From: a virus
Lineage: Duplodnaviria; Heunggongvirae; Uroviricota; Caudoviricetes
IMG/VR virus record: IMGVR_UViG_2571042690_000014
Direction: 5' to 3' (one strand)
Length of the DNA: 13,000 nucleotides
Shown here: positions 2,298-11,890 of the stretch, one piece after another
Layout: every line of letters starts with the position of its first letter
Position numbering within the stretch: the stretch's first letter is position 1
Translations under genes and position numbers: made by a program
Notes under the pieces: model-generated
Seen by the model: only the letters and a program-made list of their open reading frames with translations
Databases searched by the model: none
Told to the model about the DNA's origin: nothing

Positions 2298-5200
2298 ATG
2301 GGCAAAGGAAGCAGTAAGGGGCATACCCCGCGCGAAGCGAAGGACAACCTGAAATCCACGCAATTACTGAGTGTGATCGATGCCATCAGCGAAGGGCCGA
2401 TTGAAGGTCCGGTGGATGGATTAAAAAGCGTGCTGCTGAACAGTACACCGGTGCTGGACAGTGAGGGGAATACCAACATCTCCGGTGTTACGGTGGTGTT
2501 CCGGGCAGGTGAGCAGGAGCAGACACCGCCGGAGGGATTTGAATCCTCCGGTTCCGAGACGGTGCTGGGTACGGAAGTGAAATACGACACGCCGATCACC
2601 CGCACCATCACGTCGGCAAACATCGACCGTCTGCGCTTTACCTTCGGTGTGCAGGCACTGGTGGAAACCACCTCAAAGGGGGACAGGAATCCATCGGAAG
2701 TCCGCCTGCTGGTTCAGATACAACGTAACGGTGGCTGGGTGACGGAAAAAGACATCACCATTAAGGGTAAAACCACCTCACAGTATCTGGCCTCAGTGGT
2801 GGTGGATAACCTGCCGCCGCGCCCGTTTAATATCCGGATGCGCAGGATGACGCCGGACAGCACCACAGACCAGCTGCAGAACAAAACGCTCTGGTCGTCA
2901 TACACCGAAATCATCGATGTGAAACAGTGCTACCCGAACACGGCACTGGTCGGCGTACAGGTGGACTCGGAGCAGTTCGGCAGCCAGCAGGTGAGTCGTA
3001 ATTATCATCTTCGCGGGCGCATTCTGCAGGTGCCGTCGAACTATAACCCGCAGACGCGGCAATACAGCGGTATCTGGGACGGAACGTTTAAGCCGGCATA
3101 CAGCAACAACATGGCCTGGTGTCTGTGGGATATGCTGACCCATCCGCGCTACGGCATGGGAAAACGTCTTGGTGCGGCAGATGTGGATAAATGGGCGCTG
3201 TATGTCATCGGCCAGTACTGCGACCAGTCGGTGCCGGACGGCTTTGGCGGCACGGAGCCGCGCATCACCTGTAATGCGTACCTGACCACACAGCGTAAGG
3301 CGTGGGATGTGCTCAGTGATTTCTGCTCGGCGATGCGCTGTATGCCGGTATGGAACGGGCAGACGCTGACGTTCGTGCAGGACCGGCCGTCGGATAATGT
3401 GTGGACCTATAACCGCAGTAATGTGGTGATGCCGGATGATGGCGCGCCGTTCCGCTACAGTTTCAGCGCCCTGAAGGACCGCCATAATGCCGTTGAGGTG
3501 AACTGGACTGACCCGGATAACGGCTGGGAAACGGCAACAGAGCTTGTGGAGGACACGCAGGCCATTGCCCGTTATGGTCGTAATGTCACGAAGATGGATG
3601 CCTTTGGCTGTACCAGCCGGGGGCAGGCACACCGCGCCGGGCTGTGGCTGATTAAAACGGAGCTGCTGGAAACGCAGACCGTGGACTTCAGCGTGGGCGC
3701 AGAAGGGCTTCGCCATGTACCGGGCGATGTTATTGAAATCTGCGATGATGACTATGCCGGTATCAGCACCGGTGGTCGTGTGCTGGCGGTGAGCAGCCAG
3801 ACCCGGACGCTGACGCTCGACCGTGAAATCACGCTGCCATCCTCCGGCACCACGCTGATAAGCCTGGTTGACGGAAGTGGCAATCCGGTCAGCGTGCAGG
3901 TCCAGTCCGTCACCGACGGCGTGAAGGTGAAAGTGAGCCGGGTTCCTGACGGCGTTGCAGAATACAGCGTGTGGGGGCTGAAGTTGCCGACGTTGCGCCA
4001 GCGCCTGTTCCGCTGTGTGAGTATCCGTGAGAACGACGACGGCACGTATGCCATCACCGCCGTGCAGCATGTACCGGAAAAAGAAGCCATCGTGGATAAC
4101 GGGGCGCACTTTGACGGCGACCAGAGCGGCACGGTGAATGGTGTCACGCCGCCAGCGGTGCAGCACCTGGCCGCAGAAGTCACTGCAGACAGCGGGGAAT
4201 ATCAGGTGCTGGCGCGATGGGACACACCGAAGGTGGTGAAGGGCGTGAGCTTCCTGCTCCGTCTGACCGTAACAGCGGACGACGGCAGTGAGCGGCTGGT
4301 CAGCACGGCCCGGACGACGGAAACCACATACCGCTTCAGGCAACTGGCGCTGGGGCGTTACACGCTGACGGTCCGGGCGGTAAATGCGTGGGGGCAGCAG
4401 GGCGATCCGGCATCGGTATCGTTCCGGATTGCGGCACCGGCAGCGCCTGTCACTATTGAACTGATACCAGGGTATTTTCAGATAACAGCGGTCCCGAAAC
4501 TGGCTGTATATGACCCGACGGTGCAGTTTGAGTTCTGGTTCTCGGAAAAGCGGATTATCGATATCAGGCAGGTTGAAACCAGCGCGCGTTATCTTGGTAC
4601 GGCGCTGTACTGGATAGCCGCCAGTAGCAATATTAAGCCGGGTTATGATTATTACTTTTATATCCGCAGCGTGAACACCGTTGGTAAATCGGCATTTGTG
4701 GAGGCCGTTGGTCGGGCGAGCGATGATGCGGAAGGTTATCTGAATTTTTATAAAGGGTTGATCAATAAAACGCATCTCGGCAAGGAACTGCTGGAAAACT
4801 TTGAGCTGACGGAAGATAACGCCAGCAAACTGGAGGAGTTTTCGAAAGAGTGGAAGGACGCCAACGATAAATGGAATGCCATGTGGGGCGTCAAAATTGA
4901 GCAGACCAAAGACGGCAAACATTATGTCGCGGGGCTTGGCCTCAGCATGGAGGATACGGAGGAAGGCAAACTGAGCCAGTTCCTGGTTGCCGCTAACCGT
5001 ATCGCGTTTATTGACCCGGCAAACGGGAATGAAACGCCGATGTTTGTGGCGCAGGGCAACCAGATATTCATGAACGACGTGTTCCTGAAGCGCCTGACGG
5101 CCCCCACCATTACCAGCGGCGGTAATCCTCCGGCATTTTCCCTGACACCGGACGGGCGGCTGACGGCGAAAAATGCCGATATCAGCGGTAACGTGAATGC

Positions 5201-5693
5201 GAACTCCGGGACGCTCAACAACGTCACGATTAACGAGAACTGCCGGGTTCTGGGAAAACTGTCCGCGAACCAGATTGAAGGCGATCTCGTTAAAACAGTG
5301 GGCAAAGCTTTCCCCCGTGACTCCCGGGCACCGGAGCGGTGGCCATCAGGGACCATTACCGTCAGGGTTTATGACGATCAGCCGTTTGACCGGCAAATTG
5401 TTATTCCGGCTGTGGCATTCAGTGGCGCTAAGCATGAGAGAGAGCATACTGATATTTACTCCTCATGCCGTCTGATAGTGCGGAAAAACGGTGCTGAAAT
5501 TTATAACCGTACCGCGCTGGATAATACGCTGATTTACAGTGGCGTTATTGATATGCCTGCCGGTCACGGTCACATGACGCTGGAGTTTTCGGTGTCAGCA
5601 TGGCTGGTAAATGGCTGGTATCCCACAGCAAGTATCAGCGATTTGCTGGTTGTTGTGATGAAGAAAGCCACTGCAGGCATCACGATTAGCTGA
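2298..5693 (+). CDS. J: Central tail fibre / host specificity protein J (lambda gpJ-like)
   Basis: The 1131-aa ORF is near-identical to lambda J over the N-terminal ~980 residues ([43 protein letters not shown]...). A GGAG ribosome-binding site precedes the ATG. The C-terminal ~150 aa diverge from lambda J as I remember it. Confidence 0.95.
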
Positions 5694-5760: not shown

Positions 5761-6360
5761 ATGCGTAAATTATGTGCTGTTATTCTATCCGCAGTAGTCT
5801 GGCTGGTTGCCGCTGGTACGCCAGCGAGCGCAGCAGAGCATCAGTCCACACTAAGCGCCGGGTATCTTCAGACCCATACTGATATGCCAGGCAGTGATGA
5901 CCTGAAGGGCATTAACGTGAAATACCGTTATGAATTTACGGACACGCTGGGGCTGGTGACGTCATTCAGTTATGCCAATGCCAAAGATGAGCAAAAAACG
6001 CATTACAGCGATACCCGCTGGCATGAAGATTCAGTGCGTAACCGCTGGTTCAGCATGATGGCGGGGCCATCTGTACGCGTGAATGAATGGTTCAGTGCTT
6101 ATGCGATGGCAGGTGTGGCTTACAGCCGTGTTTCGACGTTCTCCGGGGATTATCTCCGCGTAACTGACAACAAGGGGAAAACGCACGATGTGCTGACCGG
6201 AAGTGATGACGATCGCCACAGCAACACGTCTCTGGCGTGGGGAGCTGGCGTGCAGTTTAACCCGACCGAATCCGTGGCCATTGATATTGCTTATGAAGGC
6301 TCCGGCAGTGGCGACTGGCGCACTGACGGTTTCATCGTGGGTGTCGGTTATAAGTTCTGA
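5761..6360 (+). CDS. lom: Outer membrane protein Lom (Ail/Lom/OmpX family beta-barrel), phage moron
   Basis: The 199-aa ORF has a signal peptide (MRKLCAVILSAVVWLVAAGTPASA), the Lom motif KGINVKYRYE and a C-terminus DIAYEGSGSGDWRTDGFIVGVGYKF ending in an aromatic residue, matching lambda Lom. The ribosome-binding site is GAGAGG, and the position after J is as in lambda. Confidence 0.9.
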   Translation: MRKLCAVILSAVVWLVAAGTPASAAEHQSTLSAGYLQTHTDMPGSDDLKGINVKYRYEFTDTLGLVTSFSYANAKDEQKTHYSDTRWHEDSVRNRWFSMMAGPSVRVNEWFSAYAMAGVAYSRVSTFSGDYLRVTDNKGKTHDVLTGSDDDRHSNTSLAWGAGVQFNPTESVAIDIAYEGSGSGDWRTDGFIVGVGYKF

Positions 6361-6386: not shown

Positions 6387-6413
6387 AGCCCGCCGGTTCA
6401 GGCGGGCTTTTTT
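6387..6413 (+). terminator. Rho-independent terminator downstream of lom
   Basis: AGCCCGCC-GGTTCA-GGCGGGCT followed by TTTTTT. The equivalent hairpin is present after lom in lambda (recalled from memory). Confidence 0.6.
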
Positions 6414-6481
6414 GTGCACAGAAAACCCCCAGCTAGGCTGGGGGTTCCGGAAAGCTTTCAGCTTTAAGCCAGTTATTAAAA

Positions 6482-6550
6482 CCCCTTTTGATTTGTTAAA
6501 ACACCTTGCGGTCTGGCAACTGCAAGTGTCAAACAAGAAATCAAAAGGGG
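6482..6550 (+). promoter_or_regulatory. Stem-loop sequestering the tnpA ribosome-binding site (IS200-type translational control structure)
   Basis: The left arm CCCCTTTTGATTTGTT (6482-6497) is nearly complementary to AACAAGAAATCAAAAGGGG (6532-6550), which overlaps the ribosome-binding site for the ATG at 6557. Confidence 0.45.
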
Positions 6551-6556
6551 GTCCCA

Positions 6557-7015
6557 ATGGGGAACGAAAAGAGCTTAGCGCACACCCGATGGAACTGTAA
6601 ATATCACATAGTTTTTGCGCCAAAATACCGAAGACAGGTGTTCTACAGAGAGAAGCGTAGAGCAATAGGCAGTATTTTGAGAAAGCTGTGTGAGTGGAAA
6701 AGTGTACGGATTCTGGAAGCTGAATGCTGTGCAGATCATATCCATATGCTTGTGGAGATCCCGCCCAAAATGAGCGTATCCGGCTTTATGGGATATCTGA
6801 AAGGGAAAAGCAGTCTGATGCTTTACGAGCAGTTTGGTGATTTGAAATTCAAATACAGGAACAGGGAGTTCTGGTGCAGAGGGTACTACGTCGATACGGT
6901 GGGTAAGAACACGGCGAAGATACAGGATTACATAAAGCACCAGCTTGAAGAGGATAAAATGGGAGAGCAGTTATCGATTCCCTATCCGGGCAGCCCGTTT
7001 ACGGGCCGTAAGTAA
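6557..7015 (+). CDS. tnpA: IS200/IS605-family Y1 (HUH) transposase TnpA
   Basis: The 152-aa product from the Met at 6557 (MGNEKSLAHTRWNCKYHIVFAPKYRRQVF...) has the HUH motif HIHMLVEI and a downstream catalytic Tyr region (REFWCRGYYVDTVG). The ORF track's longer form (6506) begins upstream of the ribosome-binding site and is less likely. Confidence 0.85.
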   Translation: MGNEKSLAHTRWNCKYHIVFAPKYRRQVFYREKRRAIGSILRKLCEWKSVRILEAECCADHIHMLVEIPPKMSVSGFMGYLKGKSSLMLYEQFGDLKFKYRNREFWCRGYYVDTVGKNTAKIQDYIKHQLEEDKMGEQLSIPYPGSPFTGRK

Positions 7016-7135
7016 CGAAGTTGGATGCAAATGTCAGATCGTGTGCGCCTGTTAGGGCGCGGCTGGTAAGAGAGCCTTATAGGCGCATTTGAAAAACCTC
7101 CGGCTATGCCGGAGGATATTTATTGTGGAGTGGAT

Positions 7136-9514
7136 ATGGCAGCAGTAAAAATCTCAGGTGTGCTGAAAGATGGTGCGGGAAAACCAATACAGAACTGCAC
7201 TATTCAACTGAAGGCAAAGCGTAACAGCACCACGGTACTGGTGAACACGGTGGCTTCTGAAAATCCGGATGAAGCCGGACGTTACAGCATGGATGTTGAG
7301 CATGGTCAGTACAGCGTCACCCTGCTGGTTGAAGGTTTTCCGCCTTCACATGCCGGGACCATTACCGTCTATGAAGGTTCCAGACCAGGTACGCTGAATG
7401 ATTTTCTCGGTGCCATGACGGAGGATGATGTCCGACCGGAGGCACTGCGCCGCTTTGAGCAGATGGTGGAAGAAGCGGCACGCAACGCTGAAGCCGCCTC
7501 TCAGAGCGCAGCGGCGGCAAAGAAATCCGAAACTGCAGCGGCATCATCGAAGAACGCGGCGAAAACCTCAGAAACGAATGCAGCTAACAGCGCACAGGCG
7601 GCAGCGACCTCAAAGACTGCATCGGCAAACTCCGCGACAGCAGCCAAAAAATCAGAAACCAACGCGAAAAATAGCGAGACAGCCGCAAAGACGAGCGAAA
7701 CCAACGCAAAGTCCAGCCAGACGGCAGCGAAAACCAGCGAAACGAATGCCAAAGCCAGTGAAACTGCGGCAAAAAACAGCCAGGTTGCAGCAGCCCAAAG
7801 CGAGAGCGCGGCAGCCGGTTCTGCGACTTCAGCAGCTGGATCAGCAACTGCTGCGGCTAACAGCCGGAAAGCTGCGAAGACGAGTGAAACTAACGCAAAG
7901 TCCAGCCAGACGGCAGCGAAGACCAGCGAAACGAATGCCAAAGCCAGCGAAACTGCGGCGAAAAACAGTCAGGATGCAGCAGCCCAAAGCGAGAGTGCTG
8001 CAGCTGGTTCTGCAAGCGCGGCGGCTGCTTCTGCCACTGCATCAGCCAACAGTCAAAAAGCAGCAAAAACCAGTGAAACCAATGCAAAGACAAGCGAGAC
8101 TGCAGCGGCGAACTCGGCGAAAGCATCCGCTGCAAGCCAGACCGCTGCAAAAGCAAGTGAAGACGCAGCCAGAGAGTATGCAAGCCAGGCAGCAGATCCG
8201 TATAAATATGTCTTACAGCCGCTGCCTGATGTGTGGATACCGTTTAACGATTCACTGGATATGATTACGGGCTTTTCGCCATCATATAAAAAGATTGTTA
8301 TTGGTGACGACGAAATAACGATGCCTGGCGACAAGATTGTTAAGTTTAAACGTGCATCGAAAGCAACCTATATTAACAAATCTGGTGTGCTGACAGAGGC
8401 TGCCATTGATGAGCCACGATTTGAACGTGATGGCCTGCTTATTGAGGGGCAAAGAACTAATCTTCTGCTTAATTCAACAAATCCATCTAAATGGAATAAG
8501 TCAGGCAATCTGGAACTCACAGAAATATCCACGGATTCTTTTAATTTTACTTATGGGAGATTTACTGTAAAAGATACTCTTATTGGTCAGACAAGTGCTA
8601 TTAATATCGTAACGATTTCTGGCAGTAAAGGGTTTGATGTCACAGGTGATGAAAAATATGTGACCATTTCATGCCGTGTAAGAAGTGATGTTGAAAATAT
8701 AAGGTGTCGTTTAAGATTTGAACACCATGATGGTTATACTTACACTTTTTTGGGAGATGCTTACCTCAATTTATCAACACTTGTAATTGATAAAACTGGT
8801 ACTGCTGCAGACCGTATTATTGCAAAGGCTGTAAAAGATGAGGTTACTGGTTGGATTTTCTATCAGGCTACAATTAATGCACTAGATACAGAGAGCATGA
8901 TTGGTGCGATGGTTCAATACGCTCCTGTAAAAGGTTCAGGTACAGCATCTGGAGACTATCTGGATATCGCAACTCCACAAGTGGAAGGTGGATCAAGTGC
9001 TTCGTCATTTATTGTAACTGATATAACTGCAAGCACTCGCGCAAGCGATATGGTGACAGTCCCAATCAAGAATAACCTTTATAATCTTCCTTTTACGGTT
9101 CTTTGTGAGGTACATAAGAACTGGTATAAAACGCCAAATGCAGCACCGCGTGTTTTTGATACCGGCGGTCATCAAACCGGAGCGGCTATTATTCTTGGCT
9201 TCGGTCGTTCAACAGATTACGACGGATTTCCTTATTGTGATATAGGTTTGGCTAACAGACGGGTAAACGAAAACGCATCGCTTGAAAAAATGGTTATGGG
9301 GATGCGTGTAAAGTCAGATCAGTCTACGTGCTCAGTAAGTAACGGGCGTATATCCAGCGAAAAGAAAGCCACATGGTCCTATATTCAGAACTCCGCAATT
9401 ATCCGTATTGGAGGCCAGACTACAGCCGGGTTGCGTCATTTATTTGGTCATGTCAGGAATTTCAGAATATGGCACAAGGCATTGACTGATGCTCAGATGG
9501 GGGAGTCAATCTAA
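7136..9514 (+). CDS. stf: Side tail fibre protein Stf (lambda Stf-like N-terminus, divergent distal domain)
   Basis: From the ATG at 7136, MAAVKISGVLKDGAGKPIQNCTIQLKAKRNSTTVLVNTVASENPDEAGRYSMDVEHGQYSV... matches the lambda Stf N-terminus. It is followed by Ala/Ser/Thr-rich KTSETNAK-type repeats and an AT-richer C-terminal region that does not match lambda. The ribosome-binding site is GGAG at 7127-7130; the ORF track start at 7106 lies inside the IS200 right end and is unlikely. Confidence 0.85.
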   Translation: MAAVKISGVLKDGAGKPIQNCTIQLKAKRNSTTVLVNTVASENPDEAGRYSMDVEHGQYSVTLLVEGFPPSHAGTITVYEGSRPGTLNDFLGAMTEDDVRPEALRRFEQMVEEAARNAEAASQSAAAAKKSETAAASSKNAAKTSETNAANSAQAAATSKTASANSATAAKKSETNAKNSETAAKTSETNAKSSQTAAKTSETNAKASETAAKNSQVAAAQSESAAAGSATSAAGSATAAANSRKAAKTSETNAKSSQTAAKTSETNAKASETAAKNSQDAAAQSESAAAGSASAAAASATASANSQKAAKTSETNAKTSETAAANSAKASAASQTAAKASEDAAREYASQAADPYKYVLQPLPDVWIPFNDSLDMITGFSPSYKKIVIGDDEITMPGDKIVKFKRASKATYINKSGVLTEAAIDEPRFERDGLLIEGQRTNLLLNSTNPSKWNKSGNLELTEISTDSFNFTYGRFTVKDTLIGQTSAINIVTISGSKGFDVTGDEKYVTISCRVRSDVENIRCRLRFEHHDGYTYTFLGDAYLNLSTLVIDKTGTAADRIIAKAVKDEVTGWIFYQATINALDTESMIGAMVQYAPVKGSGTASGDYLDIATPQVEGGSSASSFIVTDITASTRASDMVTVPIKNNLYNLPFTVLCEVHKNWYKTPNAAPRVFDTGGHQTGAAIILGFGRSTDYDGFPYCDIGLANRRVNENASLEKMVMGMRVKSDQSTCSVSNGRISSEKKATWSYIQNSAIIRIGGQTTAGLRHLFGHVRNFRIWHKALTDAQMGESI
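7688..8065 (+). repeat. Tandem duplication of a 189-bp (63-codon) unit inside stf
   Basis: AAGACGAGCGAAACCAACGCAAAGTCCAGCCAGACGGCAGCGAAAACCAGCGAAACGAATGCCAAAGCCAGTGAAACTGCGGC... from 7688 recurs from 7877 with only a few substitutions. It encodes two copies of TSETNAKSSQTAAKTSETNAKASETAAKNSQ.AAAQSESAAAGSA. Confidence 0.75.
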
Positions 9515-9795
9515 TGAAAGATTTAACACTCAAATTTGCAGACAGGGCCGACTTTTCGGCCTTTATGGATAGCATTGGCTATTATGATGACGAGTCGATG
9601 CAGGATGATATTCTTATTGACGTGATAGGTAACGTGTACAAAGAAACCGGAGAACTGACTGAAGATGGCGAACCGGTATGTGTTAAGGAAGATGGATATT
9701 ATGTAAACGTGCGCATCATTAATGATGCAAAAAAATCGTCAATATTCGATGAATACGCGGTTGTAGTTGAACATCAACTTCGTGGCTGGATGTGA
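9514..9795 (+). CDS. Hypothetical small acidic protein (93 aa), translationally coupled to stf
   Basis: The start overlaps the stf stop (TAATG) and is preceded by a GGGGGAG ribosome-binding site. The product is rich in Asp/Glu (MKDLTLKFADRADFSAFMDSIGYYDDESMQDDILIDV...) with no recognisable motif, and the sequence is AT-rich like the distal part of stf. Confidence 0.5.
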   Translation: MKDLTLKFADRADFSAFMDSIGYYDDESMQDDILIDVIGNVYKETGELTEDGEPVCVKEDGYYVNVRIINDAKKSSIFDEYAVVVEHQLRGWM

Positions 9796-9804
9796 GGGAG
9801 ACAA

Positions 9805-10509
9805 ATGGCTACATCGACAGTAATTCCAGGAGACATCACCACGTTAAAGGGAGATGTCAGTAAAGCCAAGGAAGATATTTCCTCAATTAACGGAAAAGTA
9901 TCAACGCTTCAGGCTGATATGACCAGTGCAAAGCAGGATATCAGCACCAGATACACAAAAACTGAAGTTGATAATAAGCTGAAAAACAAACTGGAAGTGA
10001 ACGCTCTGGAAAGCGGTCGTTATGGTGGAGATTTTTACCCGTTGACTGGCCGTGAAGCGTTTTATTTGTGGGGATTGGGCACGACTACAGCGGCGGCAAA
10101 CCTTTATCTTAATCCTGACCCCGCAATTTCGTCTGTGCTGCGGTCAACATCGTCTATCCGCTATAAACATTCAGTAGAGACAATAGATTCAGAGCACGCC
10201 GATCTCATTTTCAGGATGCGCCCTGTGTGGTACAGGTCACAATGCGAAAATGACAGGCGTGACTGGGGATTCTACGGATTGATTGCCGAGGAAGTAGGAG
10301 AAATTGCCCCTCAGTTTGTACACTGGCGACCAGCTAACGAAGATGATGCACCGGAAGCTATTTCCAGCAATGGCCTTGTTGCCGAAGGTGTAATGTACGA
10401 ACGTCTGGTTGTTCCACTGATTCACCATATCCAGAAGCTGACTGAAAGAGTTGATGAACTTGAGTCAGAATTAAAGTTGTTATCCGTTTCCCGAAGCGAT
10501 ATCGGATAA
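9805..10509 (+). CDS. Fibre-like coiled-coil protein with C-terminal intramolecular-chaperone (peptidase S74-like) domain
   Basis: It has a GAGGGAG ribosome-binding site. The N-terminus carries repeated coiled-coil-like units (GDVSKAKEDISSINGKVSTLQADMTSAKQDISTRYTKTEVDNKLKNKLE). The C-terminus fits the S74 / chaperone-of-endosialidase pattern: SIRYK (S-x-R-x-K), then LIFRMRPVWYRS, WGFYGLIAEEVGEIAPQFV and VMYERLVVPLIHHIQKLTERVDELESEL. The assignment is from memory of the family signature, not a search. Confidence 0.55.
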   Translation: MATSTVIPGDITTLKGDVSKAKEDISSINGKVSTLQADMTSAKQDISTRYTKTEVDNKLKNKLEVNALESGRYGGDFYPLTGREAFYLWGLGTTTAAANLYLNPDPAISSVLRSTSSIRYKHSVETIDSEHADLIFRMRPVWYRSQCENDRRDWGFYGLIAEEVGEIAPQFVHWRPANEDDAPEAISSNGLVAEGVMYERLVVPLIHHIQKLTERVDELESELKLLSVSRSDIG

Positions 10510-10519
10510 AGGAGGAGTA

Positions 10520-10807
10520 ATGGATATAAGCCCCTTACTTCATGCACTTTGTGCTGTGGCTGCGCAAACACTGGTTGGTCTTTTTACCGGAAACTGGGCT
10601 TACGGAGCGATAGCCGGTTGTACGTTCTTCATTGCGCGTGAACACACCCAGGCAGAATATCGCTGGATCGAAATGTTCGGGCATGGCAAGCGAATGAATA
10701 TGCCGTGGTGGGGCGGTTTTGATCCGCGCGCGTGGGATGTGACAAGCCTGATGGATTTTGCTGTGCCGGTGGTGGCGTGTCTGCTGATCTGGATGTTGAT
10801 CCGTTAA
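10520..10807 (+). CDS. Hypothetical small membrane protein (95 aa)
   Basis: It has a strong GGAGGAG ribosome-binding site 3 nt after the preceding stop. There are hydrophobic segments at both ends (LLHALCAVAAQTLVGLFTG, AIAGCTFFIA, FAVPVVACLLIWMLI). GC content is higher than in the two genes before it. Confidence 0.5.
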   Translation: MDISPLLHALCAVAAQTLVGLFTGNWAYGAIAGCTFFIAREHTQAEYRWIEMFGHGKRMNMPWWGGFDPRAWDVTSLMDFAVPVVACLLIWMLIR

Positions 10808-11159
10808 ATATAAAAGCCGCAGTAACTTGCCATGATAGGATACTGCGGCTGGCTGGTTAACTTTCGATAGTGCGAGTATTGAATGATTTCCAGCCGTTAC
10901 TGATTTTATATAACGGCAGTGGAATTATTCAACACACAGGCAAAACACAGGCAAAACGGAATAAGCTGAGAAAAAAAGCGTGCTTTCCCAATCTGGGGCA
11001 AATCACGTCTGAATGACACCTGAAAACAGGTGGTGGACTCAAGAAGGCTTGGAATATTCTTCTTTAATGTTATGTAATTCATTGATTTTTCGTGTACGAT
11101 TTTAAGACATTTATTCCAAGAAGAATTTTTAACTCTTTGATTTTTCTACTCTGTATCAT

Positions 11160-11221
11160 CGGTCTCGAAAACCGGAGTAGGGGCAACTCTACCGGGGGTT
11201 CAAATCCCCCTCTCTCCGCCA
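11160..11221 (+). other. Prophage att core: 62-nt 3' fragment of a tRNA-Ser (anticodon CGA, serU-type) gene, from anticodon stem to CCA
   Basis: CGGTCTCGAAAACCGGAGTAGGGGCAACTCTACCGGGGGTTCAAATCCCCCTCTCTCCGCCA has an anticodon stem-loop (anticodon CGA), a long variable arm, a T-arm GGGGGTTCAAATCCCCC and a 3' acceptor strand plus CCA. There is no 5' acceptor strand or D-arm upstream, so it is a partial copy, as expected for an att duplicate where a phage integrates into a tRNA gene. Confidence 0.7.
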
Positions 11222-11770
11222 CTTTATCAATGACTTATCTCCCGACTTCCCGCCTTGCTTTTCCTAAACAGAACAATCGTAGGATATTCTTGAAGGGTTA
11301 GATCGTCACTGTTTTCTGTTCGATACTGTGACATTCAGCACTTGATTCGCTATGGGTCTGACAGGAAGGTTTCGAGCGAAAATCTACAGTTATTCAGTCG
11401 TTTTCTTATCGGTCACCATTATTCTTTTAGACATTGATCCTATGAAACTGCCGCAAAGTTGCTGGCGGGAACTGAAGTTGCGTAGAGAAGGGGTCAATAA
11501 TTGAGCCAAAAAAGGAACGCGGCCGTCAGATTAAAGCCGCGGGACAAAGTCCATAATTTCCAAGAGTTGTTGAATTTCCCAGCTTTTTTGAAAGCCTTTG
11601 TATCATACTAACAAGTAAAAAAGGTTTAAACACCAAAATTAACCTATATTTCTGGTTAGCTTTACCATGACAGATGACTTGCTCCTGGAGACATTTGCGC
11701 TGCCAGTCTGTATGGCTGAGTTGTGTATTTATTGTTCGCCTTTTTCTCAGTTTTTTTCTACAGACATAAT

Positions 11771-11802
11771 AAAAAAGACACGACTCAAGTATGAGCGTGT
11801 CT
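11771..11802 (-). terminator. Rho-independent terminator on the minus strand, downstream of zinT
   Basis: On the minus strand AGACACGCTCATACTTGAGTCGTGTCT is followed by TTTTTT (plus-strand AAAAAAGACACG...CGTGTCT), about 90 nt beyond the zinT stop. Confidence 0.5.
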
Positions 11803-11890
11803 GAGTTTGTCTTACTTATTTGTCTTGGTAAATTATTGTTGTTACTACCAGGCACTGTTCTGTTAAATAACTGAAGTCAGCGCAAAAAAA

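Follow-up and report, generated by a model that had tools for sequence, protein, structure and literature searches.

The side tail fibre gene stf occupies positions 7136..9514 (+ strand) of a 13,000-nucleotide stretch of viral DNA, the window of this analysis (IMG/VR record IMGVR_UViG_2571042690_000014), and encodes a protein, Stf, of 792 residues plus stop. With a probability of about three in four, stf is an ordinary modular fibre gene, in which a lambda-type anchor and a heptad stalk that varies in length are followed by a lectin-like tip that is exchanged widely. It represents an uncharacterised new allele in a modular fibre family already known, rather than an element of a new kind. The window itself is the right end of a lambdoid prophage of Escherichia coli ST131.

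The open reading frame (ORF) is intact and matches phrog_1419 over its full length (positions 1-793 of 793, 1481 bits). All 2,379 bases of 7136-9514 are 100% identical in many E. coli O25b:H4-ST131 chromosomes, including EC958 and JJ1886, and the protein is 100% identical to EC958 WP_001554173.1, a "prophage tail fiber N-terminal domain-containing protein". RefSeq annotation and the alignment with lambda agree on the ATG start codon at 7136. A longer ORF from 7106 was rejected as an artefact because its start lies inside the right-end hairpin of an inserted IS200C element, whose insertion creates a spurious in-frame ATG at this position. The EC958 gene order runs from the tape measure and tail genes through J, lom, the IS200C transposase gene and stf to a hypothetical protein, a "tail fiber domain-containing protein", another hypothetical protein and the chromosomal zinT. 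The ORF list and Pfam scan of the window match this order, with tail genes L, K and I preceding J (2298-5693) and lom (Ail/Lom; 5761-6360), and show stf following J and lom within a lambdoid tail operon.

The N-terminal tail-attachment domain (7142..7531, + strand; residues 3-132) is of the lambda/Rac Stf type. It scores 225.4 bits against PF08400 (phage_tail_N), for which the Pfam gathering cut-off is 26.6, and residues 3-122 are ~85-88% identical to lambda orf-401 and Rac StfR. This domain would fix the fibre to the tail tip. The distal 439 residues show no significant similarity to lambda orf-314 (E = 0.78) or Rac StfR, and a lambda-type or Rac-type distal domain was rejected on these grounds.

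Base composition follows the same division. The anchor (0.538) and the shaft (0.561) have a higher fraction of guanine plus cytosine (GC) than the distal 1,320 bases (0.410), the drop coming at about position 8216. At third codon positions, GC is ~0.49 before the drop versus 0.325 in the distal part, with a minimum of 0.22 in 8471-9043; the value for J is 0.67. Because third-position GC falls as well, the shift is more than an effect of the alanine-rich shaft. A preliminary description of this DNA, made from its letters alone, had proposed a lambda-like anchor in the N-terminal ~130 residues, AT-richer DNA from about 8200 and a C-terminal part unlike lambda Stf, and all of these hold, with GC falling from 0.55 to 0.41 and uniform composition across stf ruled out. 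It had also supposed that the distal domain was swapped in from a lower-GC source. The receptor-binding module does appear to have been exchanged horizontally, but the implied direction falls away, the module being low in GC in every carrier, including the T5-like phage FGS017, whose locus is the best DNA match and has 40% GC.

The distal module consists of three parts, arranged in a conserved-variable-conserved pattern among 117 homologues. A conserved adapter (8219..8470, + strand), beginning at about residues 354-362 and ending at residue 445, carries an invariant PLPDVWIPFNDS motif at its start and has a column entropy of 0.2-0.5 and 86-97% identity among these homologues. It is followed by a variable, lectin-like jelly-roll domain (8471..9034, + strand; residues 446-633), which coincides with the GC minimum, and by a conserved C-terminal jelly-roll domain of the LamG/galectin-like type (9035..9511, + strand; residues 634-792). 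From the sequence comparisons, different anchors and stalks appear to be attached to the distal module at the adapter with its PLPDVWIPFNDS motif, and the variable jelly-roll is predicted to be the likely specificity determinant.

The Pfam scan gave no match in the distal 430 residues. Among the NCBIfam models, NF048003 ("GTA_spike_fiber") alone matched, with 58.6 bits over residues 435-636 versus a curated cut-off of 36. The AlphaFold2 (AF2) model of the distal module, built from 48 diverse sequences, reached a pLDDT (predicted local distance difference test) of 92.8 and a predicted template-modelling score (pTM) of 0.88, and its C-terminal part adopts a predicted jelly-roll fold of the ConA/galectin-like kind. 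A sequence search of the PDB returned one weak match, the Rcc01080 protein of the Rhodobacter capsulatus gene transfer agent (RcGTA; phmmer E = 2.5e-4).

The module is widespread and combined with many N-termini. A search of 5.8 billion proteins gave 2,536 matches among the candidates scored, and an exhaustive search of cluster representatives (50% identity) found 2,063 clusters with E <= 1e-3, 56 of which reached E <= 1e-30. Its N-terminal partners comprise PF08400 anchors, P2-type PF03406/PF12571 repeats, and T1- and T5-type N-termini without a Pfam match. By tblastn, the module is present in 220 phage records, with carriers including Tequintavirus, T1-like phages (Drexlerviridae), Dhillonvirus, Queuovirinae, rV5-like myoviruses (45% identity) and many lambdoids. 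The closest phage DNA belongs to the T5-like Salmonella phage FGS017, 91% identical over 8216-9537; the homology begins at 8216, with the junction at the invariant PLPDVWIPFNDS motif. The distal module would be exchanged across the divide between temperate and virulent phages, with lambdoids on one side and T5-like, T1-like, Queuovirinae and rV5-like phages on the other. The FGS017 match does not set donor and recipient, and any direction of transfer drawn from it would be conjectural. Records labelled as Listeria phage LM 4-11-1 (OR847806.1) and Campylobacter phage A116 (MG065676.1) also contain the module, at 45-75% protein identity, and the A116 record matches it at the same level as rV5-like coliphages; records of this kind are probably contaminated or host-mislabelled.

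Between anchor and tip, the stalk (7484..8218, + strand; residues 117-361, from N117 to Q361) is composed of 35 uninterrupted heptads with the consensus S-E-T-A/N-A-K-T. It has no phase break, with each of the residues Ala, Lys, Ser, Glu and Thr confined to set heptad positions; residue-by-phase counts over residues 126-352 and a Fourier peak at 7.0 residues define the phase. The stalk is 59% identical to the homologous KTSETNA stalk of the lambda Stf shaft (over 341 residues). At the DNA level, Tandem Repeats Finder (TRF) detects periods of 21, 42 and 189 bp, the last over 7681-8107, and the 189-bp unit corresponds to exactly nine heptads. The stalk is probably an alpha-helical and trimeric coiled coil, as suggested by this periodicity and by the full-length AF2 model, which places a helix over residues 101-351 at low confidence; that run used a shallow alignment of 10 sequences and serves as weak support for the helical stalk alone.

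Stalk length differs among homologues that share the anchor and the distal module (119, 140, 173, 182, 196, 211 and 245 residues), a variation seen in comparisons between diverged alleles. Most of these lengths (119, 140, 182, 196 and 245 residues) are whole multiples of seven, alleles with 26, 28 and 35 heptads are in circulation, and in alignment the window protein equals the common 726-728-residue alleles plus one 63-residue block. The suggestion that the repeat region is a site of length variation agrees with these observations. Out-of-register homologous recombination would add or remove whole heptads here, the DNA being an array of 21/42/189-bp repeats. The KTSETNAK/SETNAKT heptad stalk of window positions 7526-8218 also occurs in the virulent T5-like fibre bas32_0022 of IrisVonRoten (locus L009, 3415-5805), and the repeats could therefore serve as a shared recombination substrate between unrelated phage families. 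On the minus strand, several long antisense ORFs cross the heptad stalk at 7362-8334 (e.g., 7501-7941, 146 residues); they are most likely artefacts of the repeat composition, in which the AT skew rises to 0.7. A similar antisense ORF, orf206b, is annotated across the stf shaft of lambda itself.

Downstream of stf, three further genes on the + strand complete a cassette, whose existence the preliminary description had overlooked together with the three-part distal region and the IS200C directly upstream. The first gene (9514..9795) encodes a 93-residue protein (phrog_1361, E = 1e-46) that is a homologue of IrisVonRoten bas32_0023 and 39-42% identical to the T5-like and Seuratvirus versions. 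In lambdoid, T5-like and Seuratvirus loci alike, its gene immediately follows that of the fibre. The protein shows no similarity to lambda Tfa, no Pfam match and no meaningful PDB match; the locus does not have a lambda/Rac-type C-terminal region followed by a Tfa chaperone gene. The second gene (9805..10509) encodes a short second fibre protein of 234 residues, composed of an N-terminal peptide, a coiled-coil segment and a C-terminal S74 chaperone domain (PF13884 at residues 116-172; match to the C-terminus of the T5 L-shaped tail fibre, 8hqz, E = 5.5e-7). Stf itself has no PF13884 (Peptidase_S74) match, the S74 domain residing in this separate protein, and Stf does not belong to the self-cleaving S74 fibre class of T5 pb1 and DT57C LtfA. 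The third gene (10520..10807) encodes a conserved 95-residue protein (phrog_1443, E = 9.5e-57) with no Pfam match and no assigned function; it is 94% identical in DNA to the gene at the same position in phage 2G7b and related prophages. The order of fibre, ~92-residue protein and S74 second fibre recurs in 2G7b, two other prophages, FGS017, IrisVonRoten and the Seuratvirus KurtStettler.

The second fibre is itself composite. Its N-terminal ~18 residues, MATSTVIPxDIxxLK, are kept in lambdoid, T5-like and Seuratvirus phages while the body varies, and across these families just this segment and the chaperone domain are conserved. DNA homology to related prophages stops at 9848 and resumes at 10519, so that the first ~15 codons and the flanking genes are homologous and the body (9849-10518) appears from the alignments to be a separate swapped segment. 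With 234 residues, the protein is shorter than its homologues in 2G7b and related prophages (345) and in Seuratvirus and T5-like phages (510-581), and its mature form after self-cleavage would be ~115 residues by prediction. The 93-residue protein and the second fibre are the counterparts of IrisVonRoten Gp23 and Gp24, with the Stf module corresponding to Gp22, and the conserved C-terminal domain of Stf would probably dock the second fibre. At locus L005 (5187-7859; E. coli GCA_002087735.1), the pair of 93-residue gene and S74 fibre gene occurs twice in tandem, the first S74 fibre copy being truncated (263 residues), a sign of duplication or recombination at the level of the cassette, downstream of stf. 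A region of ~1.1 kb (10808-11890; GC 0.40) separates the final gene of the cassette from zinT. It contains short ORFs only and an 11-nt repeat, CAAAACACAGG, in 2.5 copies at 10930-10957, and is presumably the prophage end or attachment-site region.

Whether the fibre is made in ST131 may depend on the insertion upstream. IS200C, ~711 bp long, spans 6417-7127 in the same orientation as stf (+ strand), with tnpA at about 6557-7015 and the Y1 transposase within 6506-7015. It is bounded by a stem-loop near 6423-6447, read from the sequence, and a hairpin found by scanning at 7097-7115, and ends 8 bp upstream of the stf start codon. The insertion point lies between the terminator-like hairpin of lom (6387-6408) and the stf ribosome-binding site. 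Uninterrupted relatives carry just "gtggagtggat" at this point; in them, 19 bp separate the lom hairpin from the stf start, and the whole lom-stf spacer is 64 bp. The alternative that survives best, although we consider it unlikely, concerns activity rather than the identity of the gene: the cassette would be silent in ST131, with IS200C polar, the prophage cryptic and the ORF intact because the insertion is recent. An element with hairpins at both ends, interrupting that 19-bp spacer, speaks for this reading, as does a second fibre unusually short beside the 345-581 residues of its relatives. Set against this, none of the four cassette ORFs is disrupted, the ribosome-binding site GGAG (7127-7130) is still in place, many ST131 genomes share the allele at 100% identity, and read-through or an outward promoter in the insertion sequence could still drive expression.

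As to function, the fibre would reversibly bind a surface glycan, namely O-antigen, lipopolysaccharide (LPS) core or capsule, as primary receptor, with the variable jelly-roll setting specificity. Binding of a surface glycan by the distal module is probable, judging from the predicted fold, the RcGTA relative and the literature on homologous loci. Lateral fibres of related siphoviruses target O-antigen (PMC8594841), the RcGTA head fibre binds capsule polysaccharide (PMC7296036), and Gifsy-1 Stf binds LPS core (PMC12312913). For IrisVonRoten, the BASEL 2025 paper describes Gp22 as the proximal fibre, whose C-terminal domain is galectin-like and which bears the T-shaped distal fibre Gp24 (PMC11990801). 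Two other assignments of the distal module are improbable, each to a similar degree. One would make it an enzyme, a tailspike-like glycan depolymerase or esterase, in place of a binding-only lectin. The other would have it bind an outer-membrane protein rather than a glycan, on the model proposed for OmpC and the Stf of Ur-lambda; links between OmpC and side fibres of the lambda type have been described (cited in PMC11990801 and PMC12312913), and LamG and BoNT Hc-type domains can bind proteins too. However, the module is not related to the tip of lambda Stf, the protein that it does resemble in sequence, the RcGTA head fibre, binds capsule, and the homologous T5-like, T1-like and Queuovirinae loci are read as O-antigen-targeting lateral fibres (PMC8594841, PMC4728585). 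In newer data, even Ur-lambda Stf deals with the O16 O-antigen (PMC11990801).

The two 189-bp units within the stalk have a longer history than was first proposed. Copy 1 (7688..7876, + strand) and copy 2 (7877..8065, + strand) each encode nine heptads, with tails ending in GSATSAAGSATAAANSRKAA and GSASAAAASATASANSQKAA, respectively, and this tandem pair is the best register (TRF score 595). The copies share 160 of 189 bases (84.7%), with 22 of the 29 differences at third codon positions, and the identity is uneven: the first ~120 bp agree at ~94%, the last ~70 bp at ~68%. The lone unit of the P0027-type allele (locus L007) matches copy 1 at 97.9% identity, and copy 1 of 2G7b does so at 98.9%. 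Copy 2 has its counterparts in the lone unit of the P0026-type allele (locus L005; 98.9%) and in copy 2 of 2G7b (99.5%); each copy is just 86% identical to the other allele's unit. The first ~26 nt of the P0026 unit are copy 1-like and the remainder copy 2-like, which is compatible with gain as well as with loss of a unit. The two-unit arrangement also occurs in phages 2G7b (lambda-like), Tritos and HannyBb; Tritos, HannyBb and PhiR63_1 match continuously through the repeat block, and 1,047 of 5,426 complete E. coli genomes cover the full length of a 311-nt probe made up of the copy 1 tail and the whole of copy 2. Units are combined in other ways too, such as copy 2 plus copy 2 in P0086.

Given the 84.7% identity between copies, their separate single-unit matches and the spread through 1,047 genomes and several phages, the sequences argue that the two units are old and diverged, and that the two-unit form is widespread, has been reshuffled since and is not a recent slip in the ST131 prophage lineage. 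The form would have arisen by unequal crossing-over between diverged (P0027-like and P0026-like) alleles or from an old duplication, and is best explained by out-of-register homologous recombination between diverged alleles in the heptad array. The preliminary description was right about the pair and its position and wrong to call it recent and almost perfect: the array is polymorphic in length, and the copies are neither near-identical nor confined to one lineage. A recent, near-perfect duplication by slipped-strand or unequal crossover in the ST131 prophage lineage can claim the tandem pair with a period of exactly 189 bp and the existence of related one-unit alleles, but it is very improbable, given the divergence of the copies, their 98-99% identity to different single-unit alleles and the occurrence of the two-unit form at 94-99% identity in free phages and E. 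coli genomes.

Several considerations weigh against the reading of stf as an anchor, stalk and lectin-like tip acting on a surface glycan. IS200C may block late-operon transcription, with a polar effect on stf and the later genes, and the fibre may therefore not be made in the ST131 strain. The receptor proposed for this allele is drawn from comparison with relatives. The full-length AF2 model is poor (pLDDT 49), and modelling backs the helix and coiled coil weakly. The structure of Rcc01080 is resolved for residues 2-10 alone and, because the sole PDB relative thus offers no resolved fold, the lectin assignment rests on prediction. Finally, the one-unit stalks may instead derive by deletion from the two-unit form.

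A more far-reaching proposal, which we consider doubtful, extends the modular reading to the whole locus. The four-gene unit (Stf distal module, 93-residue protein, S74 mini-fibre and 95-residue protein) would be a portable cassette for a branched fibre, transferred in one piece among lambdoid phages, which are temperate, and virulent T5-, T1- and rV5-like ones. Three lectin heads would be borne on a trimeric coiled coil, an arrangement with some likeness to a collectin. Rather than binding a receptor, the invariant C-terminal jelly-roll would provide the socket into which the conserved MATSTVIP peptide of interchangeable second fibres docks, and heptad number would be selected to match the thickness of the host O-antigen or capsule.

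Read as a modular gene, stf is a clear example of fibre gene assembly from exchangeable parts, with the heptad array and the PLPDVWIPFNDS motif as junctions, and leaves the current understanding of phage fibres unchanged. Near-identical receptor-binding DNA (91%) is found in a temperate prophage of a pandemic E. coli clone and in a T5-like Salmonella phage that is virulent. For host-range engineering, cut points are suggested by the junctions and by the conserved-variable-conserved layout, and the alleles of the variable jelly-roll are candidates for the prediction of glycan specificity.

Among known systems, Stf of lambda (Ur-lambda) and StfR of Rac share with the window the position after J and lom and the PF08400 anchor (85-88% identity), and lambda Stf shares the Ala/Ser/Thr-rich KTSETNA heptad stalk. 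The distal ~430 residues are unrelated, and unlike lambda, the window has no Tfa-type assembly chaperone and instead carries the 93-residue protein and the fibre with its S74 chaperone.

Beyond the anchor, the counterpart is the lateral tail fibre cassette Gp22-Gp23-Gp24 of IrisVonRoten (Bas32, Tequintavirus). Residues 131 to the end of Stf are 54% identical to bas32_0022, and the distal module 65%; both proteins combine a KTSETNAK stalk with a C-terminal galectin-like domain. The 93-residue protein is 39% identical to bas32_0023, and the second fibres share the N-terminal peptide and an intramolecular chaperone domain. Since IrisVonRoten Gp22 is reported with a galectin-like domain and Stf aligns with it, the fibre architecture is already described, by prediction, in this virulent relative. 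Loci equivalent to Gp22-Gp23-Gp24 are present in FGS017, KurtStettler (Bas22) and T1-like phages. Unlike IrisVonRoten, the window has a lambda-type anchor in place of a T5 collar-binding N-terminus, and its variable jelly-roll is a different allele. Its second fibre has 234 residues versus 574-581 in T5-like phages and lacks their long central part, the region in which the dual receptor-binding domains of IrisVonRoten Gp24 sit and which has no counterpart in the window.

RcGTA Rcc01080 (NF048003; PDB 6tb9 and related entries) is a sequence relative of the variable jelly-roll. It differs in being bound to capsid pentons via an N-terminal Leu-Gly peptide rather than to the tail, and in having neither a coiled-coil stalk nor a second jelly-roll. 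The T5-like phages DT57C and DT571/2 likewise possess a two-protein lateral fibre, LtfA/LtfB, with the second protein proposed to attach through the first (PMC4728585). O-antigen is their primary receptor (PMC4728585), and in-frame changes in stalk repeat copy number as well as fibre-gene recombination are documented in them (PMC4728585). DT57C LtfA has its own C-terminal S74 domain and a 19-residue repeat motif, whereas the window Stf ends in a jelly-roll.

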